A stretch of 64,000 nucleotides of DNA, taken from positions 19,552 through 83,551 of the forward strand of contig MHFR01000037.1 in assembly GCA_001804285.1 (NCBI GenBank), written 5' to 3'. The translations under genes and the position numbers were made by a program. Of the stretch, positions 37,771 through 57,935 are shown one piece after another (the stretch's first letter is position 1; each line of letters opens with the position of its first letter). The notes under the pieces are model-generated. The model had not been told where the DNA came from. It was given only the letters and a program-made list of their open reading frames with translations, and made no database searches. This stretch comes from Candidatus Danuiimicrobium aquiferis. GTDB taxonomy: Bacteria > Omnitrophota > Omnitrophia > Omnitrophales > Danuiimicrobiaceae.

Positions 37771-37772
37771 CC

Positions 37773-41024: not shown

Positions 41025-41072
41025 TAGTCTAAATTATATTTTACGTTTCCATCACATAAAACTGGAGGACTC

Positions 41073-42062
41073 ATGGAACCAAATATCAAAGAACTTTCCG
41101 AACAAATCAAGGAAGCCCAAAAAAGCATTGACATCCTGTGCCGCGAAATAGGAAAAGTAATCGTCGGTCAAAAATATTTAATGGACCGGCTCATTGTCGG
41201 CCTGCTTGCAGACGGCCATATCCTCATTGAAGGTGTTCCGGGACTCGCTAAAACGATGTCCGTTCGAACCCTGTCTCAAGCCATTCAGGCAAAATTCCAG
41301 CGAATTCAATTCACCCCCGACCTATTGCCCGCAGACTTAATCGGAACGCTGGTATATAGCCCCAAGGATGGCAGTTTTTCGACCAAAAAGGGCCCTATTT
41401 TCGCAAATATCATCCTCGCTGATGAAATTAACCGTGCCCCATCCAAAGTCCAAAGTGCGCTTCTTGAAGCCATGCAGGAGCATCAAGTGACGATCGGGGA
41501 AAACACCTTTAAACTCCCTGAACCGTTTCTTGTGCTCGCGACTCAAAACCCGATTGAACAGGAAGGCACCTATCCGCTTCCTGAAGCTCAGGTGGACCGT
41601 TTCATGATGAAATTAATCGTAGATTATCCAAATAAAAATGAGGAGAAAGAGATTCTCAATCGGATGTCAACCGGATTTCCGATTGAAGTTTCTCCGGTTG
41701 TCGACTCTCAAAAAATTCTCGAATTGAGAAAACTTGTCAACCAAATTTATATCGACGAAAAAGTAAAGGATTACATAGTCGATTTGGTTTTTGCGACACG
41801 TTTTCCGGCGCAATACAAACTCGAAAATCTAAAGCCCTTGATTTCTTATGGCGCTTCACCGCGCGCAAGCATTATGCTAACTGTCGCCGCAAAAGCGCAT
41901 GCTTTTCTTCAGGGAAGAGGGTATGCCACCCCGGAAGACGTGAAATTAATCGGAAACGACGTTCTGCGACACAGAATTCTTGTCACTTACGAAGCGGAAG
42001 CAGAAGGAATGACTTCTGAAAAAATCATTGAACAGATTTTTGATCAAGTTGAGGTCCCGTAA
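41073..42062 (+). CDS. moxR: MoxR-family AAA+ ATPase
   Basis: 329 aa. Walker A GVPGLAKT and the AAA_3/MoxR C-terminal region. First gene of the Bat-type module. Confidence 0.9.
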   Translation: MEPNIKELSEQIKEAQKSIDILCREIGKVIVGQKYLMDRLIVGLLADGHILIEGVPGLAKTMSVRTLSQAIQAKFQRIQFTPDLLPADLIGTLVYSPKDGSFSTKKGPIFANIILADEINRAPSKVQSALLEAMQEHQVTIGENTFKLPEPFLVLATQNPIEQEGTYPLPEAQVDRFMMKLIVDYPNKNEEKEILNRMSTGFPIEVSPVVDSQKILELRKLVNQIYIDEKVKDYIVDLVFATRFPAQYKLENLKPLISYGASPRASIMLTVAAKAHAFLQGRGYATPEDVKLIGNDVLRHRILVTYEAEAEGMTSEKIIEQIFDQVEVP

Positions 42063-42093
42063 TTAAACCGGCTTTACCATAGGCTCATGCTAA

Positions 42094-42165
42094 CCCGCCT
42101 TTCTCATCGATTTTGTAAATCGACGAGAAAGGCGCTTCGGGCATAATCAGTTGCGCCCAAAGTTT
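42094..42165 (+). repeat. family-A repeat, partial copy (H1+H2 modules)
   Basis: CCCGCCTTTCTCATCGATTTTGTAAATCGACGAGAAAGGCGCTTCGGGCATAATCAGTTGCGCCCAAAGTTT. Relative to 47128 it shows a compensatory GAC..GTC to GCC..GGC swap in the H1 stem. Confidence 0.65.
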
Positions 42166-42181
42166 CCTGAAAAGAGGATCG

Positions 42182-43063
42182 ATGGATATCAAGCTTAGCC
42201 AAATTCTCGATCAAGTTAAACAGATCGAAATTAAATCAACCCGGCTCGTCAATGAAATCTTTGCTGGCGAATATCAATCCGTCTTTAAAGGCCGGGGCAT
42301 GGAATTTGCCGAGGTCCGTGAATATGTTCCCGGCGATGATATCCGAACCATCGATTGGAATGTCACCGCAAGATCTCAACATCCGTTTATCAAAAAATTT
42401 ATCGAGGAACGGGAACTTACCGTTATTTTCGTGGTGGATGGATCCCGTTCACTTTATTTCGGTTCCACAGAAAAAATGAAAGCAACTCTCGCCGCTGAAA
42501 TCGCCGCGCTTCTTGCCTTTTCAGCCGTCAAAAACCATGACAAAGTCGGACTTTTGATTTACACCGATACCATTGAAAAATTTCTGCCCCCCAAGAAGGG
42601 AAAAAGCAATGTTCTTCGAGTCGTCCGTGAAGTGCTTTACCATCAACCAACGGGCAAGCAAACAAACTTAAAAATCGCACTGGAATATCTCAACCAAACG
42701 GTTAAACGAAATGCCGTCGTCTTCGTCATTTCCGACTTCATCGACCATGGCTATGAACAAGCACTGAAAATCGCAAACCGCAAACACGACTTAATCGCCA
42801 TTCAAATCATCGATCCGCGCGAACAAAAACTGCCTCCTTGCGGTTGGATTGAAATGGAAGACGGGGAAACCAGCGAGCGAGCGCTGGTCAACACACAAGA
42901 TAAGCGTTTTCGTGACGACTACGAAAAAGTCTGTTTAAAGCGGGAAGCTAAAACCGATTACTTGTTTAAATTGATGGGCATCGACTCCGTTAAAATTATC
43001 GCAGGAACTTCGTATGTGCATCCGTTGGTTAAATTTTTTCGCCGGCGGGAGAAGCGGCTATGA
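42182..43063 (+). CDS. DUF58 domain protein (VWA-like, MoxR partner)
   Basis: 293 aa with the ...FKGRGMEFAEVREYVPGDDIRTIDWNVTAR... DUF58 signature. Confidence 0.8.
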   Translation: MDIKLSQILDQVKQIEIKSTRLVNEIFAGEYQSVFKGRGMEFAEVREYVPGDDIRTIDWNVTARSQHPFIKKFIEERELTVIFVVDGSRSLYFGSTEKMKATLAAEIAALLAFSAVKNHDKVGLLIYTDTIEKFLPPKKGKSNVLRVVREVLYHQPTGKQTNLKIALEYLNQTVKRNAVVFVISDFIDHGYEQALKIANRKHDLIAIQIIDPREQKLPPCGWIEMEDGETSERALVNTQDKRFRDDYEKVCLKREAKTDYLFKLMGIDSVKIIAGTSYVHPLVKFFRRREKRL

Positions 43064-44052
43064 TTCAATCAAAAGCCGGTATAAGATACTTCTTCGGTTT
43101 CATTTTATTTCTGCTCATAAATTCGACGTTTATTTTTGCTGACGATATTTCGCTTAAAACCGAAATTGACAAAGCGTTCATGACCATCGGCGATAAAGTC
43201 CACTTCAAAATCACCGCATCTCACCCCAAAAATATTCAAATACTGAATTTTGATATGAGCATCGCCCTGAGCGATTTTGAAGTGAAAGAAATAAAAGATT
43301 TTTCAATTGAGGAAAAAGGCCTGATCCAAGAAGGCAGAGAAGCCATCCTCACTAATTTCACACTCGGAGAATATGTCATTCGCCCCGTTCAGGTTCAATA
43401 TCGGGATACAAAAGGGGAGACAAAAACCATTCAATCACACCAGTTATACCTCACCGTGCAAAGTACAAATCAAAAAATGGATCCTGCAAGTGATATTCGA
43501 GGAATCAAAGGTGTCCTCAACATCAAAACAAGCCCATGGATTTGGATTGTGCCTACTGTCATTCTCATGACCGTTATTTTAAGCCTTCTGATTAGACATT
43601 ATCTCGTGAAACGCTCGTTCTTGGGCGCAGGCAAAGAGGAATCGCTTTTATCTCCGTCTGATGAAGCATTCAGGGCACTCGCAGAATTGGAACTCACAGA
43701 TTGGCTTAAACGAAATGAATTCAAACGCTATTTTTTTCGCCTATCCGAAATTGTTCGGAAATATCTCGAACGGCGATATCAAATGCCCGCTTTAGAATCG
43801 ACCACCAGCGAAGTCAGCCGTTCGCTCTCTCGAATCAAAGAACAATGCAACCCGGAAAACACAAAATCGATTGTTGATTTGCTCGAATTCTGTGATTTGG
43901 TTAAGTTCGCGAAATATATTCCGTCCCCGATAGAAATGGTCCACAAAAACAAACAAGCGAAAGCCATCGTTGAAAAGACAAAAGAAATACCAGCCGAAAA
44001 CGTTCAGAGCGAAAGCGAAAAACAATTTCCGGGAGAGGAGAAAAAACTATGA
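43060..44052 (+). CDS. BatD-like membrane protein (signal peptide, ecto-domain, one TM, charged C-terminal tail)
   Basis: 330 aa. N-terminal hydrophobic signal (FFGFILFLLINSTFIFA), a TM at about aa 160-180, and a Glu/Lys-rich C-terminus. Confidence 0.45.
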   Translation: MIQSKAGIRYFFGFILFLLINSTFIFADDISLKTEIDKAFMTIGDKVHFKITASHPKNIQILNFDMSIALSDFEVKEIKDFSIEEKGLIQEGREAILTNFTLGEYVIRPVQVQYRDTKGETKTIQSHQLYLTVQSTNQKMDPASDIRGIKGVLNIKTSPWIWIVPTVILMTVILSLLIRHYLVKRSFLGAGKEESLLSPSDEAFRALAELELTDWLKRNEFKRYFFRLSEIVRKYLERRYQMPALESTTSEVSRSLSRIKEQCNPENTKSIVDLLEFCDLVKFAKYIPSPIEMVHKNKQAKAIVEKTKEIPAENVQSESEKQFPGEEKKL

Positions 44053-45032
44053 TTCATTTTCACTCACCCTACGCATTCTTGCTTTTACTTCTGATCCCGC
44101 TTTTCTTTATGGCGGACTGGATAACCAAGCGTAGCACCTTGCGTTTTTCCTCGCTGTCAGAAATCAAACTCTGTCAAAATAAAAGCACCGCACTGATTAA
44201 ACCTTTTCTTTTCATCCTTCGCATGCTCGCCTATATCTTGCTTGTCACGGCACTTGCGCGCCCTCAAACAACCGAATCTGAACGGGAATACGAAACAAAA
44301 GGAATCGATATTGTGCTGGCTTTAGATATCTCCGGATCCATGTTAGCGGAAGACTTTAAGCCGAATAATCGTGTCACCGTGGCAAAAATGGAGGCTAAAA
44401 AATTCGTGCAGGGCCGTGAAAACGACCGGATCGGTCTTGTTGTTTTCTCGCGAAAAAGCTACACCCAATGCCCGCTGACACTGGATTATCACGTTCTTGC
44501 TGATTTAATTGAGAACGTCAATGTAGGCCTCATCAAGGACGGAACCGCGATCGGTCTTGGGCTCGCAAATTCCGTGAACCGGCTTCGTGAAAGTGACGTG
44601 AAAAGCAAAGTTATTATCTTATTAACGGACGGCGAAAATAACGCCGGAAATATCGACCCCATCACAGCTGCAGAACTTGCGAAAAGCTATGGAATCAAGG
44701 TGTACACGATCGGCATCGGCAAATCCGGATTGGTTCCGTTTCCGATTGAAGATCCCGTTTTCGGGAAACGTTATATCCAAACGCAGGTCAACGTTGATGA
44801 TAAAACACTCAAACGGATCGCCGACATTACCGGCGGACAATATTTTGCGGCAACCGACGCCAACGTACTTCATCAAATTTATCGGCAAATTGACAAATTG
44901 GAAAAATCAAAAGTCAAAATCAAGGAATACACAAGTTTTAGCGAACAATATAAAATTTTCCTGATTCCGGCAATTTTTATCTTGATTTGTGAAATCATAT
45001 TTAGAAATTTATTTTTTATTAAAATTCCGTAA
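44049..45032 (+). CDS. batA: VWA-domain protein BatA-like
   Basis: 327 aa. Two N-terminal TM helices, then a VWA domain with a MIDAS motif (DISGSM). Confidence 0.8.
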   Translation: MIHFHSPYAFLLLLLIPLFFMADWITKRSTLRFSSLSEIKLCQNKSTALIKPFLFILRMLAYILLVTALARPQTTESEREYETKGIDIVLALDISGSMLAEDFKPNNRVTVAKMEAKKFVQGRENDRIGLVVFSRKSYTQCPLTLDYHVLADLIENVNVGLIKDGTAIGLGLANSVNRLRESDVKSKVIILLTDGENNAGNIDPITAAELAKSYGIKVYTIGIGKSGLVPFPIEDPVFGKRYIQTQVNVDDKTLKRIADITGGQYFAATDANVLHQIYRQIDKLEKSKVKIKEYTSFSEQYKIFLIPAIFILICEIIFRNLFFIKIP

Positions 45033-45065
45033 CCCGGATTTCTCATTCGTGCTGAGAAACCCGGG
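45033..45065 (+). repeat. family-A repeat, minimal copy (single H1/H5-type hairpin)
   Basis: CCCGGATTTCTCATTCGTGCTGAGAAACCCGGG between batA and batB. Confidence 0.5.
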
Positions 45066-45080
45066 ATAAAGGCAAAAACC

Positions 45081-46097
45081 ATGCAACTCGTTTACCCTGA
45101 ATGGCTGAATGGACTTTGGCTGGTCGCCGGCTTATTCCTGTTTTATGGGTGGACTCAACGCCGGAAACGACAGATGCTTCAATATTTCGGGAATTGGCAA
45201 ACGCTCAAGTCGTTAACCGAATCTCATTCTCGCCAGAAAGAATGGGCAAAAAAAATTCTACTGATGGTCATTTTAACACTTTTGATTATCGCGGTAGCTC
45301 AGCCGCAATGGGGTGAGGTCAAGAAAGAAGTAAAACGGAAGGGAATTGAAATTGTATTCCTTTTAGATACGTCTCTCAGCATGCGTGCCGAAGACGTCTC
45401 TCCGAGCCGAATCGAAAGAGCGAAAATCATAATGAAATCGTTTTTACGGGAATTGAAAGGGGACCGCGTTGGAATTGTGACATTTGCGGGATCCGGGTTC
45501 ATCCAGTCACCATTAACACTCGATTACGATGCCTTTCTCCTATTTGCAAACTCGATCCAAGTCGGCTATATTCCGGATCCCGGAACGTCCTTGGGAGAAG
45601 CCATTAAAACCGCGATTAAAGCCTTCCCCGAGAACAAACAAAAGAACCACACCATGGTTTTACTCAGTGACGGGGAAAACCTCGAGGGAGCCGTCGATTT
45701 TGCCATCCAGGCGGCACAGAGCGCGAATATCCGCATTTATACAGTCGGCCTCGGAACCCCGGACGGCGCACCGATCCCTTTACGCTCGGAACAAGGAGAG
45801 CAAGTTACGGGTTATAAAAAAGATAAACAGGGACAGGTGGTCATCACAAAACTCAACGAACAGCTACTGAAAGATATCTCCGAAAAAACAAAAGGTGTTT
45901 ATTTTCTGGCCACGCCGGACGGTCGGGAAGTAGATTGGATCTATCAGCACATGCAAAACATCGAAAAGAAAGAATTAAAACAAAGAGTCGTCGTTGAGCG
46001 GGAAGAACATTTTCAAGCTTTTCTCGGATTGGCGGTTTTTTTGTTGATCATCGAAATGTTGCTAAGCGAAACACAAAAGGCCAAAGCACATGCATAA
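45081..46097 (+). CDS. batB: VWA-domain protein BatB-like
   Basis: 338 aa. TM helices, a VWA domain (DTSLSM MIDAS) and a C-terminal TM. Confidence 0.8.
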   Translation: MQLVYPEWLNGLWLVAGLFLFYGWTQRRKRQMLQYFGNWQTLKSLTESHSRQKEWAKKILLMVILTLLIIAVAQPQWGEVKKEVKRKGIEIVFLLDTSLSMRAEDVSPSRIERAKIIMKSFLRELKGDRVGIVTFAGSGFIQSPLTLDYDAFLLFANSIQVGYIPDPGTSLGEAIKTAIKAFPENKQKNHTMVLLSDGENLEGAVDFAIQAAQSANIRIYTVGLGTPDGAPIPLRSEQGEQVTGYKKDKQGQVVITKLNEQLLKDISEKTKGVYFLATPDGREVDWIYQHMQNIEKKELKQRVVVEREEHFQAFLGLAVFLLIIEMLLSETQKAKAHA

Positions 46098-47115
46098 GCG
46101 CAAGGGGGTCCTTATTTTTTCCCACGTTTTTTACTTCGTTACATTCTGCGCATTTTTCACAACCACATCCGGCCTTAACCGGGACGGAAATAAACTTTAC
46201 CAGGAAAAACGTTATGAATCGGCATTAAAAAATTACAGGGAAGCACAAGTTCGAAATCCAGACCAGGCCGAGACGCAATACAATCTTGGAACCGCTCTTT
46301 ACCAAACGGATCAATTTCAAGAAGCCGATGAGCACTTCAAAAAATCCATCGAACTGATGAAAGATAAAGACGACAAGGCAAAGGCCTGGTATAACTACGG
46401 AAATTCTCAATATCGCCTGGGCCAATTCGAAAAAGCGATTGACGCCTATAAACACGCGCTTGATTTAAATCCGGCCGATCAGGACGCCAAATACAATATA
46501 GAGTTGCTTCAAAAGAAAAAAAACATGTTTGACATCAAACAAAAAAACCGGGATGAAAAGAAAAACGAGCAAAACCAAAACCAACAAAAACAAAACCAGC
46601 AACAAAGTAAACAACAGCAAAGCCAGAATCAACAACAGAACCAGCAGCAACAGCAGCAGAACCAACAAAACCAGCAGAACGAGCAACAACAGCAGCAAAA
46701 CAAGCAGAACCAAGAACAAAATCAAAAACAGAATCAACAGGATCAACAAAACAAAGAACAACAAAAACAAGATCAGCAGAACCAACAACAAAAAGAGCAG
46801 AATGAACAACAGCAGCCCGATCAAGGCGAAGAAGAACAAAATCAGCAGCAAAAAGAACAGGCAGAAAAAGAGCAGCAACCAAAAGAACAACGAGAACAAG
46901 AAACACCGGCCGCGCCACAGCCCGATCAATCACAAAATCAACAAGGCGGCAAACCTGAGGAGCAACAACAAAAACAGTTATATCAGGGGCAAATGTCCCG
47001 CGAAGATGCGGAAAGAATTCTAAATGCCCTCAAAGATACCGAGCAGGAGTTGCAAAGCATCGTACGCCGCCCCCAGGAAAAATTCCCGGACCACAACCCA
47101 GAAAAAGATTGGTAG
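46090..47115 (+). CDS. batC: TPR-repeat protein BatC-like with a roughly 150-aa Gln/Asn/Glu/Lys-rich low-complexity insert
   Basis: 341 aa. A signal/TM segment, three TPR units (aa 30-140), a Q/N-rich tract, and a short conserved C-terminal segment. Confidence 0.7.
   Translation: MHKRKGVLIFSHVFYFVTFCAFFTTTSGLNRDGNKLYQEKRYESALKNYREAQVRNPDQAETQYNLGTALYQTDQFQEADEHFKKSIELMKDKDDKAKAWYNYGNSQYRLGQFEKAIDAYKHALDLNPADQDAKYNIELLQKKKNMFDIKQKNRDEKKNEQNQNQQKQNQQQSKQQQSQNQQQNQQQQQQNQQNQQNEQQQQQNKQNQEQNQKQNQQDQQNKEQQKQDQQNQQQKEQNEQQQPDQGEEEQNQQQKEQAEKEQQPKEQREQETPAAPQPDQSQNQQGGKPEEQQQKQLYQGQMSREDAERILNALKDTEQELQSIVRRPQEKFPDHNPEKDW
46540..46960 (+). repeat. cryptic simple-sequence region (CAA/CAG/AAC codon repeats) inside batC
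   Basis: For about 420 nt the + strand is composed almost exclusively of A and C, with few G and almost no T. The antisense frames give poly-Leu artefact ORFs. Confidence 0.8.
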
Positions 47116-47127
47116 CAATCATTTAAA

Positions 47128-47316
47128 ATAACTTTAACCCGACTTTCTCATTGATTTTGTGAATCGACGAGAAAGTCGCTTTGGGCGCAATCAGTTAAGC
47201 CCAAAGTTTTGCGCCCTTGTTAATTTGGGGCGCAAAAGATAAGCCCTGCGTCGCAAAGATGAATACCCTCTTTGCACCGCAGCTCTTACGAGCGGAATTT
47301 CTCATTAACAATGAGA
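47128..47316 (+). repeat. family-A composite structured repeat, full-length copy (left arm of a roughly 190-bp inverted pair)
   Basis: CCCGACTTTCTCAT-CGATTTTGTGAATCG-ACGAGAAAGTCG, CTTTGGGC..GCCCAAAG, TTTTGCGCCC..GGGCGCAAAAG-ATAAGCCC, ..., GGAATTTCTCAT..ATGAGAAATCCGGGCT. The reverse complement of 50621-50819 is more than 90% identical over about 190 bp. The element ends about 30 nt before the yqeY ATG. Confidence 0.85.
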
Positions 47317-47345
47317 AATCCGGGCTAAATATTCAGGAGCATCCC

Positions 47346-47792
47346 ATGACACTGACAGAACAGCTTGCAGAAGATCTTAAAACCGCTATGAAACAAAAGG
47401 AAGAAGTCCGGCTATCAACCATCCGGATGCTTAAAGCCGCCATGCAGATGAAAGCCATCGAAAAGAAGGTGAAAGCGCTTGCCGACGAAGAAGTCCTCGA
47501 TGTTATTCAAAAACAAGTCAAACAGCGGAAAGACTCAATCGCCGAATATGATAAGGGAAACCGGCGGGATTTAGCAGAAAAAGAACAAAAAGAAATCGAT
47601 GTTCTCATCACTTATTTGCCAAAACAGCTCTCCAAAGATGAATTAAAACAAATCGTACAAGGAGCGATCACCGTCACAGGAGCGACCACTAAAGCCGATA
47701 TCGGCAAATTAATGAAAGAAATCATGCCTAAAGTCAAAGGAAAAGCCGACGGGAAAGAGGTCAATCAGCTAATCAGCGAGCTCTTGCCGTAG
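47346..47792 (+). CDS. yqeY: GatB/YqeY domain protein
   Basis: ATG at 47346 (MTLTEQLAEDLKTAMK...) with AGGAG at 47334-47338. The ORF track's 47217 start would read through the repeat. Confidence 0.7.
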   Translation: MTLTEQLAEDLKTAMKQKEEVRLSTIRMLKAAMQMKAIEKKVKALADEEVLDVIQKQVKQRKDSIAEYDKGNRRDLAEKEQKEIDVLITYLPKQLSKDELKQIVQGAITVTGATTKADIGKLMKEIMPKVKGKADGKEVNQLISELLP

Positions 47793-47815
47793 AAAGCTTG
47801 CAAACAGATTATAAT

Positions 47816-47843
47816 TGTTTACATAACATATATTATAGGACGT
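47816..47843 (-). other. dif: candidate dif site (XerC/XerD chromosome dimer resolution site) at the gene-orientation switch point
   Basis: The reverse complement of 47816-47843 is ACGTCCTATAA-TATATG-TTATGTAAACA. The B. subtilis dif is ACTTCCTAGAA-TATATA-TTATGTAAACT. That is 24 of 28 identical, with 10 of 11 in the XerD arm. It lies in the 69-nt convergent intergenic region where coding strand polarity flips from + to -. Confidence 0.5.
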
Positions 47844-47861
47844 TATTGACAGCATTAAAAA

Positions 47862-48350
47862 CTACTTCTTTCTTCTAAATACGTCGATCTTCAACGAAGA
47901 TACCCGATCAAGAAATAAGATTCCGTTTAAGTGATCAACTTCGTGTTGAATACACACAGCTTCAAGCCCATCGGTTTCTATTCGGTTGACTTTCATGTCA
48001 AGGTCAAACCATTCTACTTTAATGGTATTCGCTCGCCTGACATTGGCCGTAAAATCCGGAATACTCATACATCCCTCCCGAAAGATTCGAAAATCCGATT
48101 CGGCGGTAATTACAGGGTTAATCATCACAAGCTGGGCTTTCCCTTGGATTTTCCGTGAGACATCGATAATGATCACGCACTTAAGAACGCCTACTTGCGG
48201 CGCAGCAATACCGATACCGCCTGGCTGCTGATGCATGATTTCGTCTAAATCTTTAATAAACGTTCTAAACTCGGCATCAATACGTTGAACCGGCTCAGAT
48301 ATTTTTTTAAGAATCGGGTCCGGATATGTGTAAATATGATATGGCTTCAT
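47862..48350 (-). CDS. def: peptide deformylase (second copy)
   Basis: 162 aa with all three PDF motifs: GIGIAAPQ, EGCMSIP, QHEVDHLNG. Confidence 0.9.
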   Translation of the reverse strand: MKPYHIYTYPDPILKKISEPVQRIDAEFRTFIKDLDEIMHQQPGGIGIAAPQVGVLKCVIIIDVSRKIQGKAQLVMINPVITAESDFRIFREGCMSIPDFTANVRRANTIKVEWFDLDMKVNRIETDGLEAVCIQHEVDHLNGILFLDRVSSLKIDVFRRKK

Positions 48351-48908
48351 TTAAAGGCGCGCTGTTTCAAGTGGTTTAAACGACACATCCACTTTCAATT
48401 TCTTCTTTATTTGATCGATTTTTTTCTCAACTGTTCGAATCCTTGCATTTTGAGGGGCATCAACCTCCAAAATAAGCGCATAAATTGAATTTTTTCCGGA
48501 TCCCGCAATGTTGGAATTCAAATCGGTAATATTCAACCCCTCATCCGCTAAAACCTTGGAAACTTGATAAACAATACCCGCGTGATCCCTTCCATAGACC
48601 GAAAGAATGTACGGAACCGAACCTTTTAGATGCTTTTCACCGCGTGTCAATCGCCGCTTTATCGGTCTTATTTGAATGCTCAAAGCCAATGTTTTTTTGA
48701 TTCGCTCAATTGAAGCAACAAACTTTCGGTAACCGGAAGCACTGCCGATTTCCGCCAAAAGAATCATGGCAAACTCCCCTTCCAAAATCGTCATATTGGC
48801 ATCTTCCAGATTGCCACCGCATTTAAAAATTGCGCCCGTAAACGCTGCGATAATTCCCGGCTGATCCTTCCCTGTAATCGTCATCAATAATTTCATGGAA
48901 CCCCTCAC
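48351..48908 (-). CDS. tandem ACT-domain protein (GcvR-like)
   Basis: 185 aa with two ACT-like repeats (MTITGKDQPGIIAAFTGAIF... and LSVYGRDHAGIVYQVSKVLA...). Abuts the def2 start and overlaps the cca stop by 4 nt. Confidence 0.65.
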   Translation of the reverse strand: MRGSMKLLMTITGKDQPGIIAAFTGAIFKCGGNLEDANMTILEGEFAMILLAEIGSASGYRKFVASIERIKKTLALSIQIRPIKRRLTRGEKHLKGSVPYILSVYGRDHAGIVYQVSKVLADEGLNITDLNSNIAGSGKNSIYALILEVDAPQNARIRTVEKKIDQIKKKLKVDVSFKPLETARL

Positions 48909-50227
48909 TGGTTAATCAGTTTTTCCTTTACGTACAAAATGGCATCCTCTTTCGATTTGAATTTCAATTCGAGCTGAAGTTCATAAATCGCATTTAAGAT
49001 TTCTTTCATTATCGGGCCTTCCGAAACCCCTAACGCCATCAGATCATGGCCGTTGATAATACATTTCGGCTTTAAATCTTCTTTCTTGAATTCTTCTCGT
49101 TTCTGAATCAAAAAATAATAATTATCAAGCGAACCGTGGCTCGCCAGGCAATCTGCCCGATGAAGTTCCAGTTCCATTTCAAAGGTTTCTTTGCCGATCA
49201 ACTGTTTCAGTTTCCCGATCCTCATTTCTTTCACATCCCCATAACGCATGTGATTCCCGATCGCCCATGTAATCCGATCAATTTCCTGATTCGAAAAGCG
49301 GAGCCGGGTTAACGCTTCCCGCGCAATGTCAGCCCCCACCGCGGCATGATTATAAAAATGGATATCGCCCGTTTCCGTTCGCCCGAAAGTACCGGGCTTA
49401 CCGACATCATGAAAAATCGCAGAAAAAGCCAACTCAACCGAAACCGGCTGCTTCAATTGATCCAACATGAGTTTGGTATGGACAAAAACATCGCCTTCCG
49501 GATGATACGCTTCCGGTTGTTTGACACCCTTTAGCGCTTCGATTTCTGGTAAAACCTCTGCAAGCAAACCGCTTTCTGACAGCAAAACAAGCCCCTTCCC
49601 CGCTCCCGGCCGAGTAAACATTTTAACGAGTTCATCGCGGATCCGTTCCTGGCTGACCCTGTGAATGCTTGTCCGGTTACGAATCATCGCAGCCCATGTT
49701 GCTGCCTCAATTTCAAAATTCAAATTTGCCGCAAACCGGATCGCGCGTAAAATCCGGAGATGATCTTCCTCAAAGCGCTCCTGCGGATTTCCGATCGTAC
49801 GGATAACTTTCTTTTCAATATCCATTTGCCCGGAAACGAAATCGATCATTCGGCGATTCATCGGATCGTAAAACAATCCATTGATCGCGAAATCCCGCCT
49901 TTTCGCATCTTCTTCGGGCGAAGAAAAAGACACTGACTCGGGATGGCGGCCATCCACATACTTCGCATCAGAGCGGAACGTGGTCACTTCAAATTGATAC
50001 CCCTCCAGGACAACAATTTCGACACCGAATTTTTTCCCGACAGAAATACATTTCGGGAACATCGCTTCAATGTCATCCGGAAGCGCACTGGTCGCAATAT
50101 CATAATCTTTGGGCGTATTTCCCATAATCAAATCCCGGACATATCCGCCGGCAAAAAACGCCACAAATCCGGCGGCTTTCAGCTTTTCAATAATTTGAAT
50201 TGCGATTTTTTCTGCCTGTTCAGCCAT
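48905..50227 (-). CDS. cca: CCA tRNA nucleotidyltransferase (pol-beta-like NTase head + HD domain)
   Basis: 440 aa. GGYVRDLIMG...DYDIAT NTase motif, ...RRDFAING..., and a C-terminal HD domain (HDVGK...HH...D). Confidence 0.85.
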   Translation of the reverse strand: MAEQAEKIAIQIIEKLKAAGFVAFFAGGYVRDLIMGNTPKDYDIATSALPDDIEAMFPKCISVGKKFGVEIVVLEGYQFEVTTFRSDAKYVDGRHPESVSFSSPEEDAKRRDFAINGLFYDPMNRRMIDFVSGQMDIEKKVIRTIGNPQERFEEDHLRILRAIRFAANLNFEIEAATWAAMIRNRTSIHRVSQERIRDELVKMFTRPGAGKGLVLLSESGLLAEVLPEIEALKGVKQPEAYHPEGDVFVHTKLMLDQLKQPVSVELAFSAIFHDVGKPGTFGRTETGDIHFYNHAAVGADIAREALTRLRFSNQEIDRITWAIGNHMRYGDVKEMRIGKLKQLIGKETFEMELELHRADCLASHGSLDNYYFLIQKREEFKKEDLKPKCIINGHDLMALGVSEGPIMKEILNAIYELQLELKFKSKEDAILYVKEKLINQ

Positions 50228-50240
50228 AAAAGATTCCCAA

Positions 50241-50291
50241 TACCCCTCACCCTATCCCTCTCCCCGTGGGAGAGGGATAGGGTGAGGGGTA
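50241..50291 (-). repeat. family-C GC-rich perfect hairpin (24-25-bp stem, 3-nt loop)
   Basis: TACCCCTCACCCTATCCCTCTCCC-cgt-GGGAGAGGGATAGGGTGAGGGGTA, located between the acyP stop (50331) and the cca start (50227). A related copy lies at 57841-57896. Confidence 0.8.
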
Positions 50292-50330
50292 TCTGTTAAT
50301 CACTTCAAAACGCTAAATAATTACTTCCAA

Positions 50331-50603
50331 TTAACGGACTGAAAACGTTACAAAATTCTGCTGTGGCTCTTCAACCGTAATCGCCACATCATCCACTTGC
50401 GCACCCGGCGGTCCGGAATGACACCATTTGACTAATCGCGCAATATAGGCTTCTTCGCCTTGCGCCACAATCTCAACCTTTCCATCGGGTAAATTTCGCG
50501 CAAAACCAACTAATTTCAGGCTTCTTGCGTTCTCTGCGGCCGAAGCGCGATAAAACACCCCTTGAACTCTTCCGGAAATCAACAAATTGACCTGTTTAAT
50601 CAT
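50331..50603 (-). CDS. acyP: acylphosphatase
   Basis: 90 aa with VQGVFYR...GFARN acylphosphatase signatures. Confidence 0.85.
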   Translation of the reverse strand: MIKQVNLLISGRVQGVFYRASAAENARSLKLVGFARNLPDGKVEIVAQGEEAYIARLVKWCHSGPPGAQVDDVAITVEEPQQNFVTFSVR

Positions 50604-50620
50604 GATCCCCTATCGCCCTC

Positions 50621-50819
50621 AGCCCGGATTTCTCATTCTGAATAAGAAATTCCGCTCGTAAGAGCTGCGGCGCAAAGATGGTCCGTATGTTTGCGACGCA
50701 GGGCTTATCTTTTGCGCCCTGATTTAACAAGGGCGCAAAACTTTGGGCGTAACTTATTGCGCCCAAAGCGACTTTCTCGTCGATTCACAAAATCGATGAG
50801 AAAGTCGGGTTAGGACTCA
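50621..50819 (-). repeat. family-A composite structured repeat, full-length copy (right arm, inverted)
   Basis: The reverse complement aligns base-for-base with 47128-47316 (same five hairpin modules, ATAAGCCC and GGGCT landmarks). Its 3' end, in the transcribed sense, lies about 18 nt upstream of the acyP ATG. Its 5' end overlaps the last 11 codons of the MFS gene. Confidence 0.85.
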
Positions 50820-51996
50820 TATTCTTGCTTAGTTTACGGATAAACCAAAAGCCGGTCAAACTCAAAAATGCGGTGGCAAGAATAAGCCAATTCAAGCCAA
50901 TGCCTTCATAGAGCATTCCGCCTGCCGAACGGAAAATAGCCTGGCTTAGATTATAGATACTTGAAATCATGGCAAATAATGACCCTTCGACACCGGTTCC
51001 GTGTGATAACTTTGCCGCCAAGGACATGAATGGCAGCAAACTGATATAACCCAAAATACCGCCAATCACAGATAAAACACCTGCCGACACTCTGCCCCGG
51101 ATAGCAAAAACGAGAAGCACGTCAACAAAGGTAATCATAACTGCCCAATATAGCGCCGTTTGGTCTTTCATGGTTTTAAAAAACCGCGCATAAAACAAAC
51201 AGCCGATAATCGCCCCAAGCCACGTTAAACTTTGAAGGAGCCCGAGAAAAAACTCATTAAACCTGAGCTGGTCCTTCATGTAAAAAAAGAATGGCGTTCC
51301 AATCGCTACCGGCAGCGCTGAAACGGCAAAAAGCAGCATGAACCATAGAATCTTGCGTTGAAATAAATATTTGAAACTTGTAAAAACCGCCTCTGCAATT
51401 TTTTCTTTTCGCGATCGTGCATCGGAAGGCTGTTCGTGAATAAAAAATGAAACCACAAATGAAATCATGGGCAAAAACCCGGTTAATAGGAAAACGGTCC
51501 GGTATCCAACCTTCACCGTCAAATACCCACCCGTCACACCCGCGAGTAAAGCGCCTATGCTTCGGGCACCCCACGATATGCTTTGATACGTCTGGGCGGT
51601 ACTTTTATCCGAATATTCCACAACTAAACCATCCGTGATCACATCTGTGGCGGCGAGCCCTAAATTGGCAAGTGTCAACGCAAAAATCACCGTCACGTCT
51701 TGAGCTTGTCCAACCGCCAGCAAAAACCATCCGGCAGCCGAAAAAAGTGAACAAATAATTAAATACGGTTTTCTCCTCAGTCCGAAAATCGGAATCCCGT
51801 CACTGATGATTCCATAGAGGATTTTAACAAACCACGGCCATGTCGTCAGCGATGTGATCCATGCAATTTTTGAAATACTGTAACCGTTTTCACGCATGAA
51901 TAGCGGCAGTGCAATAGCGGAAAGACCGAGGGCTCCCTGGATAAAATACACGACAAAGGCAAGGCTTCCAACATTCTTATTGATACGTTCTTTCAT
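50785..51996 (-). CDS. MFS-type transporter (12 TM; folate/biopterin-transporter-like)
   Basis: 403 aa of polytopic membrane protein with an MFS-like 6+6 arrangement. Confidence 0.6.
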   Translation of the reverse strand: MKERINKNVGSLAFVVYFIQGALGLSAIALPLFMRENGYSISKIAWITSLTTWPWFVKILYGIISDGIPIFGLRRKPYLIICSLFSAAGWFLLAVGQAQDVTVIFALTLANLGLAATDVITDGLVVEYSDKSTAQTYQSISWGARSIGALLAGVTGGYLTVKVGYRTVFLLTGFLPMISFVVSFFIHEQPSDARSRKEKIAEAVFTSFKYLFQRKILWFMLLFAVSALPVAIGTPFFFYMKDQLRFNEFFLGLLQSLTWLGAIIGCLFYARFFKTMKDQTALYWAVMITFVDVLLVFAIRGRVSAGVLSVIGGILGYISLLPFMSLAAKLSHGTGVEGSLFAMISSIYNLSQAIFRSAGGMLYEGIGLNWLILATAFLSLTGFWFIRKLSKNMSPNPTFSSIL

Positions 51997-52019
51997 GTCG
52001 TGTCAAGTTAGGTAAGTTT

Positions 52020-52337
52020 TTAAGACGAGAAAAAGTCCCTGGCTGTTTGCTGACCTGTGAGTTTTTTAAAATCATCATAATCAATCCATGTGAGATCCTG
52101 CCTCGCGGCATGAAGATGCTTCACAATCCGGAACCTTTCTCCGGGATTACTTGCGAATCGCCTGCTCGTTACATACTTAAACGGCGTTTTGCACTTGGGA
52201 CATTCTTTTGCGGTTTTATAACTGATGCCAAGTTCTCTGCAATTTCCGCAATCGCCCATGAGATCGCCGGCAATGAGCAAATGTTTTTGAATGTCGTTAA
52301 GGTCCTTCTCCGCCCAAATTCGAATCCAGCATTGCAT
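52020..52337 (-). CDS. hypothetical zinc-ribbon protein
   Basis: 105 aa with CGNC...CPKC. No family recognised. Confidence 0.35.
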   Translation of the reverse strand: MQCWIRIWAEKDLNDIQKHLLIAGDLMGDCGNCRELGISYKTAKECPKCKTPFKYVTSRRFASNPGERFRIVKHLHAARQDLTWIDYDDFKKLTGQQTARDFFSS

Positions 52338-52365
52338 AACGACTCCTTAGATTAAGCACCTCTTT

Positions 52366-52971
52366 TTACTTAACAATAAACACTTCGTCCCCTGCTCTCA
52401 CCCGCTCTTTCACCTCAATGCCAACCTCTTCACCTTTTCGTCCGGTATCCACGGGAATCCGGCTGATTTGAAGAGACTGAATCTTTTGACGGAAATCCGT
52501 CGTCTCACCCTTAAACAATACAAAATCCCCGACAGAAAGCGGTTTCGCCAACTTCACCGCAGCAGCATTTACATTCGGGAAAAAATGAGTCACATCCGCA
52601 ACCTTTACCAATCGTTTTTGAATTCCAGCCGGCTTGACGGCTTTTGCCTTTTTGACACTGTGAGATTTAACTTTCGGTCGACTGTGCCGTTTCTTTTTGT
52701 TACGGACAATTTTCTTTTTCGATTTCCGTTTTGGTCTTGCTTCCGTTTTTCTTCTTTTCGGCTTACCTTTTTTTCGTTGTTTTCGCTTCGCAGGAAACCG
52801 TCCGCTTGTTTTAGACTGAATATCTTCGCCGGCCAGTAGCCGTTTAGAAAATTTGATAACTTTTTTTAGCAGTCCAAACACTGAAAGCCTATTTTTTTGT
52901 CTTTTTTTGTTTAAAAAAAGAATCCACCCATTTGACTGACCATGAAAATATTGAGTCACCGCCTTTTTCAA
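52366..52971 (-). CDS. hypothetical highly basic protein with an EF-Tu domain-2-like C-terminal beta-barrel; start uncertain
   Basis: A Lys/Arg-rich central tract is followed by ...PLSVGDFVLFKGETTDFRQKIQSLQI...GRKGEEVGIEVKERVRAGDEVFIVK, which resembles the EF-Tu/IF2 domain II pattern. The annotated N-terminus overlaps ORF 52889-53266 by 83 nt. Confidence 0.35.
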   Translation of the reverse strand: MKKAVTQYFHGQSNGWILFLNKKRQKNRLSVFGLLKKVIKFSKRLLAGEDIQSKTSGRFPAKRKQRKKGKPKRRKTEARPKRKSKKKIVRNKKKRHSRPKVKSHSVKKAKAVKPAGIQKRLVKVADVTHFFPNVNAAAVKLAKPLSVGDFVLFKGETTDFRQKIQSLQISRIPVDTGRKGEEVGIEVKERVRAGDEVFIVK

Positions 52972-53266
52972 CTGTATGAACTGTTTTATCGGTTCCCTTC
53001 CCGATCAAGTTTGATGACTTCTCGGTCACATCAGCCGTATTGTCCTCAACCACCTTCAACGTCTTTTTAATCGCTGCGCGCTTTGCGGGCGACTCGGCAA
53101 CCGCCGCTGCTGGCGTTCCTGAAAATGTCGCTTCTTTTCGGTCTTCAACTTGGCGGATCGCAATATCTGGGTTTAAGTCTTTATTTTCATTGCCGGCAAG
53201 TAAAAAAAACGGCGAGACTATCAGGATTAACAAAAATAGGCCTGCAAAATAGATGATTCGCTTCAT
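52889..53266 (-). CDS. hypothetical secreted protein (signal peptide)
   Basis: 125 aa. N-terminal MKRIIYFAGLFLLILIVSPFFLLAG signal, then a hydrophilic Ala/Lys/Glu-rich body. Confidence 0.4.
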   Translation of the reverse strand: MKRIIYFAGLFLLILIVSPFFLLAGNENKDLNPDIAIRQVEDRKEATFSGTPAAAVAESPAKRAAIKKTLKVVEDNTADVTEKSSNLIGKGTDKTVHTVEKGGDSIFSWSVKWVDSFFKQKKTKK

Positions 53267-53333
53267 AGTAACCTCGCTATTTATTCATCAGTAACAATGA
53301 CCAACACTGCGACACGGTAACACATATATTTTT

Positions 53334-53394
53334 GTCATTCCCGCGGAAGCGGGAATCTATAAACTATGGATGCCCGCTTTCGCGGGCATGACAG
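53334..53394 (-). repeat. family-B palindromic repeat copy (two hairpins)
   Basis: GTCATTCCCGCGGAAGCGGGAATC ... GATGCCCGCTTTCGCGGGCATGACA, immediately downstream of rng. Confidence 0.7.
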
Positions 53395-53413
53395 AAGTTC
53401 ATGTGCCCGAACG

Positions 53414-54913
53414 CTACTTCACAAATGTAATATTCGTATCTTCCCTGTGCATACTCGGATCGGCAAGAATATAAATCTTACTCTTCGAATTTTTTTCCAA
53501 CTCCTTGATCGACTGCTGTTCCTGATTTAAGAGCCGCTCCGCAACATCCGGATGAACATACGCATTAATCACTTTGTTGTGAGAATGATTAAGCGCTTTC
53601 TTGATTTCTTTAATCGTATGAATCGTCATCGTCGTCACTGACTTGACGCTTCCTTTTCCCGTGCAATAGGGACAAGAATCATACACGGCGCTCTCAAGTG
53701 ACGGGCGTATTCTCTGGCGCGTCATTTCCACAAGGCCAAGCTCGGACATCTGCAGAATATTCGTCTTTGCACGATCGCGCCTGACCGCATCCTTGAAAAG
53801 CCGGTAAAGATGCCTCCGGTGATCTTCTTCCTCCATATCAATAAAGTCAATAACGACAATTCCGCCCATGTCGCGCAACCGGACCTGTCTCGCAATTTCC
53901 GAAGCCGCTTCAAGATTGGTACGATAAACCGTTTCTTCCAAATCTTTGCTGCCGGTAAATTTTCCGGTGTTCACGTCGATAGCAACCAGGCCTTCTGTCT
54001 GTTCGATAATAATATGGCCCCCGGAGTGTAAATAAACTTTCTTGTGAAAAGTCCTCTCCACCTCTTTTTCAATGTGATATTTTTCATAAAGGGGAGCATC
54101 GCCCTTATACCAGTCAAATTTAACCTTCACTCCGGGAAGATAAATATTGAGAAAGCGCTTGACCTGATTATATAAATTTTTGTTATCGACAACGATTCGC
54201 TCGACTTCCTCATTATAGAAATCGCGGATAATACGCTCCACCAAATCGAGCTCGGAATGAATCAGGCACGGCGCCGTTTTATTTTGACATTCCGTTTTAA
54301 TTTTACTCCATACCCGGGTTAAATATTTAATGTCGCGCGCAAACTCCTTTTTCGTTTTCCCTTCCCCCGCCGTCCGGACAATAAAACCGATATCGCTCGG
54401 GCAACTCAATTCCTGAAAAATAGCCCGGATGCGGTCTCTCTCGGAGCGGGAATCAACACGCCTGGAAATGCCTAATTTATGATCCCCCGGCATTAAAACA
54501 AGATAACGCGCCGGAATGGCAAAGTGAGTCGTTAAACGCGGGCCTTTCGAGCGGATAGGTTCTTTGACAATCTGGACAATGACTTCCTGTCCGGGTTTTA
54601 GAAGATCTTCAATTCGCTGAAACTGCTTTCTCTCGCTTTTCTCTTCGTATTCAATATCTTCAAACGCAGAATCTAAACCAAGCGGGGACTCAAGCGCATC
54701 CGTAACATATAGGAAGCCATCCTTTTGCGTTCCCAAGTCGACAAACGCCGCCTGCATCCCGGGAATCACTGACTTCACGATTCCTTTGTAAATATTCCCA
54801 AACATTTTGTACGTGTCGGCCCGCTCGATAAAAAACTCTTCGAGCTTCCCATTTTCGAGAATCGCCACGCGTCTCTCGTTCACTTCTTCTGAAATTAAAA
54901 TATCTTTTTTCAT
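53414..54913 (-). CDS. rng: ribonuclease G/E family endoribonuclease
   Basis: A start at 54913 (MKKDILISEEVNERRVAILENGKLEEFFIER) gives about 499 aa, with an S1 domain, DNase-I-like catalytic region and a CPxCxGxG zinc link (CPYCTGKG). The ORF track's longer 55021 start is less likely. Confidence 0.85.
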   Translation of the reverse strand: MKKDILISEEVNERRVAILENGKLEEFFIERADTYKMFGNIYKGIVKSVIPGMQAAFVDLGTQKDGFLYVTDALESPLGLDSAFEDIEYEEKSERKQFQRIEDLLKPGQEVIVQIVKEPIRSKGPRLTTHFAIPARYLVLMPGDHKLGISRRVDSRSERDRIRAIFQELSCPSDIGFIVRTAGEGKTKKEFARDIKYLTRVWSKIKTECQNKTAPCLIHSELDLVERIIRDFYNEEVERIVVDNKNLYNQVKRFLNIYLPGVKVKFDWYKGDAPLYEKYHIEKEVERTFHKKVYLHSGGHIIIEQTEGLVAIDVNTGKFTGSKDLEETVYRTNLEAASEIARQVRLRDMGGIVVIDFIDMEEEDHRRHLYRLFKDAVRRDRAKTNILQMSELGLVEMTRQRIRPSLESAVYDSCPYCTGKGSVKSVTTMTIHTIKEIKKALNHSHNKVINAYVHPDVAERLLNQEQQSIKELEKNSKSKIYILADPSMHREDTNITFVK

Positions 54914-55372
54914 GATTATCAACCACTCTTTCTGTAATTCCGTGTAATTCCCCGCATCCGCCGGAGCAGTCGCAATCCTGAGATTCATCCAGCCATGGAA
55001 TTGAATCTTTACCGGAATCAATATTCAAAATGTCAAAATTGAACAGGCCTATTATCAAGGCCTGCAAAGATCGCCACGAAGTTTCACGCTTCTGTGACGT
55101 TGTGTGGCAAGAGAATAAACAATGCGGCATCGAATTCGTCAATAGAACACGAAAGATGTCTCTGGCTATGGAATGGACACTTTGAATAATTGATTGGACC
55201 TGCTCGCAAAGGCGAGTAAATACAATGCTAATAAATAGTTTAAACTTTAAAATTTTTTCACCTAAAATGCTTGCGAATCCGCTTAAATCAACGTCAATTA
55301 TGTGCGAATTCAAAAAACTAATCTTGTCAAAAACCTTCAAAATCATAAATAAAAAACCATTTTGCGTTTCTC

Positions 55373-55481
55373 TGTCATTCCCGCAATCTTCCCTCGGTAA
55401 ATCGAGGGCCGGCCCTGTATTTCCAGGGTAGGCGGGAATCTCTGAATCGTAGATGCCCGACATAAGCATTCGGGCATGACA
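55373..55481 (-). repeat. family-B repeat, expanded copy with a nested GGGCCGGCCC core
   Basis: CTGTCATTCCCGC-[CCCTCG..CGAGGGCCGGCCCTG..CAGGG]-GCGGGAAT ... GATGCCCGA..TCGGGCATGACA. It lies in the roughly 670-nt region upstream of rng. Confidence 0.7.
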
Positions 55482-55586
55482 CAATACAATCTGTCGTAAC
55501 TTATACCCATTACAAAAACCAGTCAAATTAAGTATTTTAAGATAATATCGAACTCTGACAGCTGTATTATACCATACTTTCACAAC

Positions 55587-57140: not shown

Positions 57141-57207
57141 TATTTTATTTCCTGTTTTACTCAAACTGACCGTTTTTTTAATAAGTGGGACATCACATCT
57201 TAATATT

Positions 57208-57255
57208 CTGTCATTCCCGCCTGAAGCTTGCGGGAATGACAGAAATTCGCAGAAC
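57208..57255 (-). repeat. family-B repeat, minimal copy
   Basis: CTGTCATTCCCGC-ctgaagctt-GCGGGAATGACAG-AAATTCGCAGAAC. The 3' tail CAGAAA.YCGCAGAAC is shared with the copy ending at 60521. Confidence 0.7.
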
Positions 57256-57264
57256 TCAATTCCT

Positions 57265-57777: not shown

Positions 57778-57840
57778 TTTAGACCAATACTGAGACGTGT
57801 TTTTAGTGCTTCGCTCAATAAATTCGAATCGATTTTCATC

Positions 57841-57896: not shown

Positions 57897-57935
57897 GTAA
57901 TTCCGGTACTGATTTACTGAATAGCTTACTCCGTT

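Follow-up and report, generated by a model that had tools for sequence, protein, structure and literature searches.

A 28-bp site of the dif type lies in the short spacer at which two long blocks of co-oriented genes converge in the 64,000-nt stretch of DNA analysed here (hereafter the window). We consider it likely that this site is the dif at which chromosome dimers are resolved in an uncultured member of the Omnitrophota, placed where the two replichores, as defined by gene orientation, meet. The more limited statement that the 28-mer is a functional chromosomal dif at this gene-orientation arm boundary is very probable. The assignment is well supported by the sequence match, by the occurrence of the core of the site as a single copy in each of 41 other genomes, by the conservation of bases that the search left free, by the unrelated genes that flank the site in different lineages, and by its position in the chromosome of Bacillus salacetis. 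The similarity to dif is far above background, the site has a two-arm structure, and its conservation is independent of its flanks. The site is thus ordinary for a terminus region of a known kind; the continuity of the mutational skew through it is the one unexplained anomaly.

The dif-type 28-mer and its spacer

On the - strand, positions 47816-47843 of the window form a 28-bp candidate dif, ACGTCCTATAATATATGTTATGTAAACA, which is identical at 24 of 28 positions to ACTTCCTAGAATATATATTATGTAAACT; Kono et al. (2011) give the latter in a supplementary table as the dif of both Bacillus amyloliquefaciens and B. pumilus. The mismatches are at positions 3, 9, 17 and 28. When all 28-mers on both strands of the window were compared with ACTTCCTAGAATATATATTATGTAAACT, the runners-up reached 19/28 (one site), 18/28 (two sites) and 17/28 (nine sites). 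A match of 24/28, with the next at 19/28 among 128,000 positions, is far above chance, and the degree of identity given in the original prediction for the convergent spacer was thereby reproduced. The exact 28-mer occurs once in the 64-kb window, where no second site of at least 20/28 was found. The spacer, the site and the two adjoining genes are composed as follows:

47793..47861, no strand: convergent spacer of 69 nt between the stop codons of yqeY and def2, in which the dif 28-mer is the sole recognisable element
47816..47843, - strand: predicted dif-type Xer site, ACGTCCTATAA-TATATG-TTATGTAAACA, with 11-6-11 architecture and imperfect dyad symmetry
47833..47843, - strand: putative XerC-type arm, ACGTCCTATAA, site positions 1-11, identical at 9/11 positions to the B. 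subtilis-type arm ACTTCCTAGAA
47827..47832, - strand: central region TATATG, 6 bp, which would host strand exchange (TATATA in Bacillus)
47816..47826, - strand: putative XerD-type arm, TTATGTAAACA, site positions 18-28, identical at 10/11 positions to TTATGTAAACT
47346..47792, + strand: yqeY, YqeY/GatB-like protein of 148 aa, last gene of the + block (gene call and Pfam PF09424); coding-strand four-fold GC skew -0.36
47862..48350, - strand: def2, peptide deformylase paralogue of 162 aa, last gene of the - block (Pfam PF01327); four-fold GC skew +0.23

The sequence TTATGTAAACA departs from TTATGTAAACT at the outermost base only, so that the XerD arm is essentially intact, as had been proposed. 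The inner bases of the two arms (TATAA/TTATG) are symmetric. By analogy with the dif sites of E. coli and B. subtilis, the arm ACGTCCTATAA would be the XerC side. Compared with ACTTCCTATAATATATGTTATGTAAACT, the consensus of the 41 single-copy sites found elsewhere, the window site is identical at 26 of 28 positions. Its G at position 3 is common to three other loci (L010, L024 and L032; loci carrying the site in other genomes are designated by L numbers), and its last base, A, is atypical, being T in 40 of the 41 other sites.

The closest known counterpart in sequence is the dif of B. subtilis, which is acted on by CodV and RipX. The two sites are alike in their length of 28 bp, in the 11-6-11 architecture, in 24/28 identical positions, in a XerD-type arm matching at 10/11, and in an intergenic location at a point of gene convergence. 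They differ in the centre, TATATG in the window and TATATA in B. subtilis, in positions 3 and 28, and in the host phylum, here Omnitrophota. Position 9 of the window site is T, as in the variant found in Listeria, Jeotgalicoccus and Omnitrophota, and unlike B. subtilis dif. The E. coli dif/XerCD/FtsK-KOPS system is alike in its presumed mechanism and in the type of the inner arms (CATAA/TTATG), whereas only ~17 of 28 positions of E. coli dif are identical to the window site by manual count. If the site works like XerCD/dif of E. coli and CodV-RipX/dif of B. subtilis, its two 11-bp arms would be bound by a pair of tyrosine recombinases whose genes would lie elsewhere in the genome. An FtsK-type translocase reaching dif at the closing septum would trigger the recombinases, and strand exchange across the 6-bp TATATG would turn a chromosome dimer into two monomers. 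Xer binding, FtsK dependence and the presence of one copy in the source genome would be expected on the same analogy.

The site is AT-rich, partly palindromic and placed where a terminator is expected, features that would also suit an AT-rich palindrome arisen by chance, or a terminator that ends transcription of the two convergent genes from both directions. The probability of such an origin is negligible in our estimation. The match of 24/28 stands against 19/28 for the runner-up among 128,000 positions, and the exact 22-nt core with its conserved outer bases is found once per genome in three phyla. In the 69-nt spacer we detected no intrinsic-terminator-like hairpin and no G+C-rich stem followed by a T run; the spacer folded no better than shuffled sequence (z = +0.73), and searches of the window with Rfam and ARAGORN returned no matches. 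The reading of the spacer as a terminator or structured RNA was therefore discarded on the hairpin, folding and Rfam checks.

Occurrence of the site in other genomes

The 22-nt core CCTATAATATATGTTATGTAAA was searched for in one genome per species of 185,579 species. It was found in 41 species genomes, in one copy each; the source genome of the window is not among the 41. The hosts, which belong to three phyla, are cocci of the Jeotgalicoccus, Salinicoccus and Phocicoccus type (Staphylococcaceae-like), Listeria, Bacillus and about 14 metagenome-assembled genomes (MAGs), the latter labelled Omnitrophota (6), Planctomycetota (6), Bacillota (1) and Muribaculaceae (1). The centre TATATG is present in 41/41 sites, but it was demanded by the search pattern and hence is not independent evidence. 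The six outer bases, which the pattern left free, are nearly invariant among the 41 sites (ACTT...A[C/G]T), and such conservation of unspecified bases would not be seen in a chance match. In the chromosome of Bacillus salacetis, the only complete one among the 41, the site is at 1,943,053 of 4,443,543 bp, i.e. at 43.7%, where the terminus region should lie provided that the record begins at dnaA.

The genes beside the site differ between lineages. Homologues of the window proteins near dif were sought at the other loci and none were found. At L037, L024, L035 and L007, the genes beside the site are unrelated housekeeping genes, and no Xer genes were present among the ten flanking proteins scanned there. 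Because the flanking genes are unrelated between lineages, the 28-mer is conserved in its own right and not as part of a syntenic block. Synteny of dif with def and cca in relatives was also considered and dropped: a metagenome scan gave two relatives, and in the usable one, which has a 45%-identical CCA enzyme, no dif-like site was found within 10 kb.

The wide occurrence agrees with an earlier survey, in which the Firmicutes dif profile was the one that transferred best to many other phyla (Kono et al. 2011). In the single Planctomycetes genome of that 2011 survey, dif prediction failed (Kono et al. 2011), and the accessible part of a report on Omnitrophota genomes (West-Roberts et al. 2023, bioRxiv 10.1101/2023.11.21.568195) contains no mention of dif. 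The sites found here provide a concrete dif sequence, ACTTCCTATAATATATGTTATGTAAA[C/G]T, for the Omnitrophota and for MAGs labelled Planctomycetota, which can serve as a landmark for orienting and closing MAGs of uncultured bacteria.

Similar sites are not confined to chromosomes. They are present in 122 plasmid records (mostly Bacillus megaplasmids) and in large Bacillus phages, replicons on which matches of 90-93% over 30 nt are found, and one IMG/VR contig carries a 27/28 site. Since dif-type sites are found on megaplasmids and phages, the motif alone is no proof of a chromosome terminus.

Gene orientation and gene content around the site

Gene content was read from public contigs whose sequence is identical to the window, using their gene calls and Pfam matches. 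Proteins identical to those of the window are named Omnitrophica bacterium RIFCSPLOWO2_12_FULL_44_17 and RIFCSPLOWO2_02_FULL_44_1x, which identifies the source as a member of the Omnitrophota from Rifle groundwater. The window DNA is also present in the NCBI MAG GCA_001804245.1 and in several groundwater assemblies, and with ~28 kb added from beyond the window, the region read extends from window -19.6 kb, where all of the assemblies end, to +72.2 kb (~92 kb). All open reading frames with a gene call or Pfam support are on the + strand over 1-47792 and on the - strand over 47862-64000, the single exception being a 57-aa call that overlaps another gene. The + run starts at about window -17460, after one lone - gene, and the - run reaches at least window +72191. 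The complete coding-strand switch that had been described at the spacer was thus confirmed and extended, with + genes for ~65 kb on the left and - genes for at least 24 kb on the right. The two blocks are:

includes 1..47792, + strand: block of ~65 kb with ~58 co-oriented housekeeping genes directed toward dif (gene calls and Pfam), comprising priA, def1-fmt, gap-pgk-tpi, secG, galT, recG, rsmD, coaD and plsX-fabH-fabD-fabG-acpP-fabF; smc, recA-recX, alaS, the his operon and the trp operon; and a sensor kinase with a sigma-54 activator (two-component system), dnaK, a moxR-DUF58-batA/B-TPR operon and yqeY
includes 47862..64000, - strand: block of at least 24 kb of co-oriented genes directed toward dif (gene calls and Pfam), comprising def2, an ACT-domain protein, cca, acylphosphatase (acyP), an MFS/BT1 transporter, three small ORFs and RNase G (rng); pilQ-(224 aa)-pilO-(210 aa)-pilM (pilQ-O-N-M), a PMT_2 glycosyltransferase and an AAA_14 ATPase; and further glycosyltransferase, radical-SAM and methyltransferase genes

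The two deformylases are 36% identical, and def1 lies upstream of fmt. We searched the ~92 kb for tyrosine recombinase, FtsK, plasmid, partition and phage genes and found none, in agreement with the earlier observation that xerC and xerD are absent from the window. From its core housekeeping content, the contig is chromosomal and not a plasmid. IMEX attachment sites and the Xer sites of plasmids and phages (cer, psi, pdif, and those of Bacillus megaplasmids and phages) belong to the same 28-mer family and use host Xer recombinases, whereas the window site lies amid chromosomal housekeeping genes, with no partner site in the window and no mobile-element genes. It is therefore very improbable that the 28-mer serves to resolve multimers of a plasmid, chromid or phage genome, as the plasmid, phage and IMG/VR records described above might suggest. 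The ~92 kb contains priA, recA, recG, smc, dnaK, alaS, def/fmt, cca, RNase G and type IV pilus genes, as well as genes of glycolysis and of fatty-acid, histidine and tryptophan biosynthesis; it contains no replication, partition or phage genes, and the contigs that carry the region are 0.2-1 Mb long.

The arrangement of the genes is that expected of a terminus region in this phylum. In complete Omnitrophota genomes, almost all genes of each replichore are on one strand, according to West-Roberts et al. (2023, bioRxiv 10.1101/2023.11.21.568195). Since these replichores are nearly single-stranded for genes, a convergent switch marks the boundary of the chromosome arms. In the three complete genomes of the same phylum described there, the terminus is accordingly marked by a complete convergent switch. 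Genes are likewise co-oriented toward the site at other loci in MAGs labelled Omnitrophota or Planctomycetota, where the numbers of + and - genes on the left and on the right are 4/0 and 0/3 (L027), 7/0 and 0/2 (L031), 6/0 and 0/4 (L037), and 3/0 and 1/6 (L026). With genes directed toward the spacer from both sides, the term "terminus" is supported in the sense of a terminus region.

Composition around the site and the meeting of replication forks

The original prediction regarded the co-oriented genes converging on dif as a textbook signature of a terminus, and proposed an inversion of GC skew near 47.8 kb as its check, with a skew of unchanged sign counting as a refutation. Co-oriented genes do meet at a dif-type site, but the skew inversion is absent from both the raw and the four-fold degenerate positions, so that the wording was overstated. 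Raw GC skew shifts from -0.001 in 1-47792 to -0.153 in 47862-64000. Its cumulative curve stays almost level, with the peak at 30,679, until it drops steeply from 47.8 kb onward. The raw skew thus breaks in slope at 47.8 kb but does not reverse its sign.

At four-fold degenerate sites, the GC skew of the coding strand is -0.156 on the left (95% bootstrap CI -0.186 to -0.124; 40/45 genes negative) and +0.260 on the right (CI 0.205 to 0.314; 15/17 genes positive). Expressed on the + strand, these values are -0.156 and -0.260, i.e. this strand is C-rich at four-fold sites on both sides of dif. All eight four-fold codon families shift in one direction between the two sides. At codon position 1, the coding-strand GC skew differs little between the sides, being +0.235 on the left and +0.268 on the right; the AT skew of the + strand at four-fold sites is +0.05 and +0.10, and the intergenic GC skew is -0.009 and -0.148, respectively. 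A mirror-symmetric terminus needs left and right skews that sum to zero. The sums are negative in every site class, including codon positions 1 and 2 and intergenic DNA, and most negative at the least constrained sites, indicating that mirror symmetry fails.

In 5-kb bins, the four-fold GC skew (GC4 skew) of the + strand ranges from -0.10 to -0.28 between window 0 and +72 kb. It is close to 0 between window -17.5 and -5 kb, which corresponds to a low-GC glycosyltransferase/Wzy cluster, and the lone - gene to the left of this cluster has a G-rich coding strand (+0.19, n = 133). A skew flip ~52 kb to the left of dif, suggested by the leftmost 5-kb bin (+0.086), was considered and dropped in view of the values near 0 in the Wzy cluster and of +0.19 in the lone - gene. 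The sign of the skew is constant from window -19.6 kb to +72 kb, and no skew shift point was found near dif. The strand asymmetry of replication type thus runs continuously over ~92 kb. The skew of the coding strand, on the other hand, jumps abruptly from -0.36 in yqeY to +0.23 in def2, with no attenuation near dif. An artefact of codon usage or expression was ruled out by the agreement of all eight families and by the gene counts of 40/45 and 15/17. All values fit a model in which the - strand of the window is the leading strand throughout, the coding-strand contribution c being ~0.05 and the replication contribution r ~0.21.

These values bear on the strictest reading of the region, according to which the forks meet at the spacer, dif, strand switch and terminus coincide, and the skew anomaly reflects, as a relic or an artefact, the past of the left block. 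The exact flip of gene orientation at dif and the sharp break in the slope of the raw cumulative skew at 47.8 kb agree with this reading, as do the near single-stranded Omnitrophota replichores with normal whole-genome GC-skew curves (West-Roberts et al. 2023). It predicts, however, equal coding-strand skews on the two sides, whereas -0.156 and +0.260 were observed, with non-overlapping confidence intervals and in all eight families, and the change between yqeY and def2 is abrupt. In addition, C-rich coding strands need a long residence on the lagging strand, and no recent rearrangement produces them. We therefore consider the strict reading unlikely. A recent inversion as the cause of the anomaly was rejected, because an inversion leaves the composition of the coding strand unchanged and the present arrangement is the one with the continuous skew. 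As an inversion cannot alter coding-strand composition, the ~58 genes of the left block must have been on the G-poor strand for long. The complete Omnitrophota genomes have ordinary two-replichore GC-skew curves, as described by West-Roberts et al. (2023); in the window, by contrast, the synonymous skew is continuous through the switch.

The absence of a skew inversion from the ~92 kb would also be understandable if the 28-mer were a secondary or relic dif-like site, e.g. the end of a Xer-integrated element (IMEX), with the functional dif at the true skew shift point. Its two departures from the lineage consensus, one of them at the normally invariant last T, point in the same direction, and dif-like sites are known on mobile replicons. 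However, a site derived from an IMEX is separated from the real dif by no more than the length of the element, and its XerD arm is usually degenerate, whereas the XerD arm found here matches at 10/11 positions and the 64-kb window has no second site of at least 20/28. Moreover, both flanks consist of core housekeeping genes and not of mobile DNA, and the convergent strand switch at which the site lies is the one kind of place expected for a terminus in Omnitrophota. A relic is thus quite improbable, and we retain the interpretation of the 28-mer as the chromosomal dif.

If the 28-mer is the chromosomal dif, its coordinate is probably not the usual meeting place of the forks. On either side of dif, the synonymous sites of the window's - strand are rich in G and T; with the usual polarity, in which the leading strand is G-rich, this would mean that the fork from the right crosses dif. 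From composition, it is a serious possibility, which we put forward tentatively, that the right-hand fork, which approaches from the XerC-arm side, runs through dif and replicates at least ~65 kb of the + block head-on. The passage beyond dif would amount to at least ~67 kb with standard polarity, or to at least 24 kb from the left if the polarity is reversed. For fork fusion to be displaced in this way, the two replichores would have to be unequal by ~130 kb or more, or a fork barrier would have to lie far away. One may speculate that such an imbalance is created by giant genes, since Omnitrophota proteins of at least 10,000 aa have been reported (West-Roberts et al. 2023, bioRxiv 10.1101/2023.11.21.568195).

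Forks that pass dif are known from other bacteria. In B. subtilis, dif is tens of kb from the RTP/Ter fork trap, and one fork crosses dif. In E. coli, forks pass through dif (1,588,773) to the Ter sites (TerC, 1,607,184), an offset of ~18 kb in 4.6 Mb (0.4%), compared with what would be at least 67 kb here (at least 24 kb if the polarity is reversed) in a genome of probably ~2 Mb. More generally, termination occurs near dif and not at dif, and the distance between dif and the skew shift point is 0-1.39% of the genome (1 sigma), with outliers below 3% (Kono et al. 2011). For a genome of ~1.6-2.1 Mb (sizes from West-Roberts et al. 2023), a passage of at least 67 kb reaches or exceeds the limit of this published range, which, like the missing skew inversion itself, counts against the interpretation favoured here. 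Head-on copying of dnaK, recA, fab, alaS and other genes would also be difficult to square with a phylum in which gene co-orientation is almost perfect.

In its full form, the displacement would mean that the segregation terminus, comprising dif and the strand switch, is uncoupled from the replicative terminus, with one fork habitually crossing dif and copying at least 65 kb and ~58 genes head-on, long enough for synonymous sites to have equilibrated. We regard such uncoupling as possible but doubtful. If it is true, the fork-fusion point can lie elsewhere without any shift of dif or of gene polarity, which bears on the question of why genes are co-oriented. The one-sided pattern at the other dif loci described below hints that gene orientation in these phyla may follow the ori-dif axis rather than the direction of the fork, or that the passage of forks through dif may be polar. 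Whatever its cause, a ~65-kb housekeeping block beside dif bears a lagging-strand mutational signature despite the near-perfect co-orientation in the phylum.

Candidate FtsK-orienting sequences were counted in the directions toward and away from dif. For GGGNAGGG, the ratios were 2:1 on the left and 5:0 on the right, and for GAAGAAG 25:5 and 10:2, respectively; since all genes are co-oriented, these ratios are confounded by, and inseparable from, a coding bias.

The GC4 skew at the other dif loci, read in the direction from the XerC to the XerD arm, was, on the left and on the right, 0.20 and 0.25 (L024), 0.38 and 0.42 (L026), 0.08 and 0.22 (L027), 0.11 and 0.17 (L037), and 0.14 and 0.34 (L010), compared with 0.26 and 0.16 for the window; L032 could be read on one side only. 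The loci L026, L027, L031, L037, L038 and L042 are mutually syntenic, which leaves only 4-5 independent cases (L024, L010, L032 and the L026/L027/L037/L038 group), none of them opposite in sign. A systematic link between the orientation of dif and the G-rich strand was therefore not adopted: with 4-5 independent cases it is suggestive without being significant. The 8-kb control loci from Firmicutes were noisy, and several of the cocci among them had the same sign on both sides.

Inverted hairpin repeats around dif

Four copies of an intergenic repeat family, whose unit consists of three tandem hairpins and spans about 110 nt, were found in the window:

37767-37880, hairpin repeat copy
42090-42165, hairpin repeat copy, first two hairpins only
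47135-47326, hairpin repeat copy, 192 nt
50621-50812, reverse strand, hairpin repeat copy, 192 nt

Each copy has a gene immediately upstream, and three compensatory base-pair changes were observed across the four. No Rfam family reached its gathering score against these repeats, which may be REP/MITE-like or may act as a terminator module.

The two 192-nt copies (at 47135 and 50621) form an inverted pair, 92% complementary, that encloses the 3.3-kb segment yqeY-dif-def2-ACT-cca; recombination across this pair would invert dif. Contigs of the same population from other assemblies (L004, L005 and ERZ27254845 k141_2165070) terminate within the hairpin repeats, at window positions 47248 and 50675-50772, and L005 corresponds exactly to the segment between the two copies. 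Such contig ends fit either of two readings: assembly breaks induced by the repeats, or a polymorphism in which the segment carrying dif is inverted.

A separate palindromic hairpin, long and near-perfect, lies at 50239-50293, between cca and the acylphosphatase gene. The Rfam search of this hairpin returned only sub-threshold miRNA-like matches, on both strands (41 bits versus a gathering score of 75).

Genes and composition of the two blocks

Two peptide deformylase paralogues, each of 162 aa and 36% identical to one another, are encoded at the following positions:

1-224, extending to -264 on contig L047, peptide deformylase in the usual def-fmt pair
47862-48350, peptide deformylase directly adjoining dif

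The Q/N-rich low-complexity tract at 46550-46920, composed of CAA/CAG/AAC repeats in 19 overlapping degenerate copies, sits within a TPR/BatC-like gene, the last of the moxR-bat operon, and accounts for a local AT-skew spike of 0.32-0.36.

A-rich octamers showed a strong coding-strand bias to the left of dif (1-47792; CAAAAAAA 34:3, TCAAAAAA 31:3), but no such bias to its right (47862-72191; 7:4 and 4:7, respectively). This left-only bias is one more way in which the left and right gene blocks differ in composition.

Left end of the region

All assemblies of the population (contigs L062, L063 and L064) break at one place, about window -19.6 kb, which is some 2.1 kb to the left of the first Wzy gene; this common break point suggests that a repeat or a region variable between strains lies there. 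In the adjoining 12-kb glycosyltransferase/Wzy/DUF2079 cluster, GC content is lower (38-42%) and the skew at synonymous sites is close to zero, as DNA acquired recently would be expected to show.

Dif-type sites in other records

Synteny around dif unites MAGs labelled 'Planctomycetales' (L027, L037) with MAGs labelled 'Omnitrophota' (L026, L031, L038), and tblastx segments are up to 95% identical among the syntenic loci (these five and L042). The public taxonomy labels of these MAGs are inconsistent.

The only IMG/VR contig with the dif core, IMGVR_UViG_3300011211_000001 (138 kb), carries at 560-587 the site ACTACCTATAATATATGTTATGTAAACT, which matches the consensus of 41 single-copy sites at 27 of 28 positions and shares the XerC-arm variant ACTACC with an Omnitrophota MAG locus (L007). 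Either the contig is a piece of bacterial DNA that was misclassified, or it comes from a large phage or element that has an Xer site of its own. In the plasmid and phage collections, dif-type 28-mers (90-93% identity over about 30 nt) were found in unannotated stretches of 122 plasmid records, of which 94 are from Bacillus and mostly megaplasmids, and of the 165-kb Bacillus phages vB_BsuS_PJN02, FADO and 2S-4.
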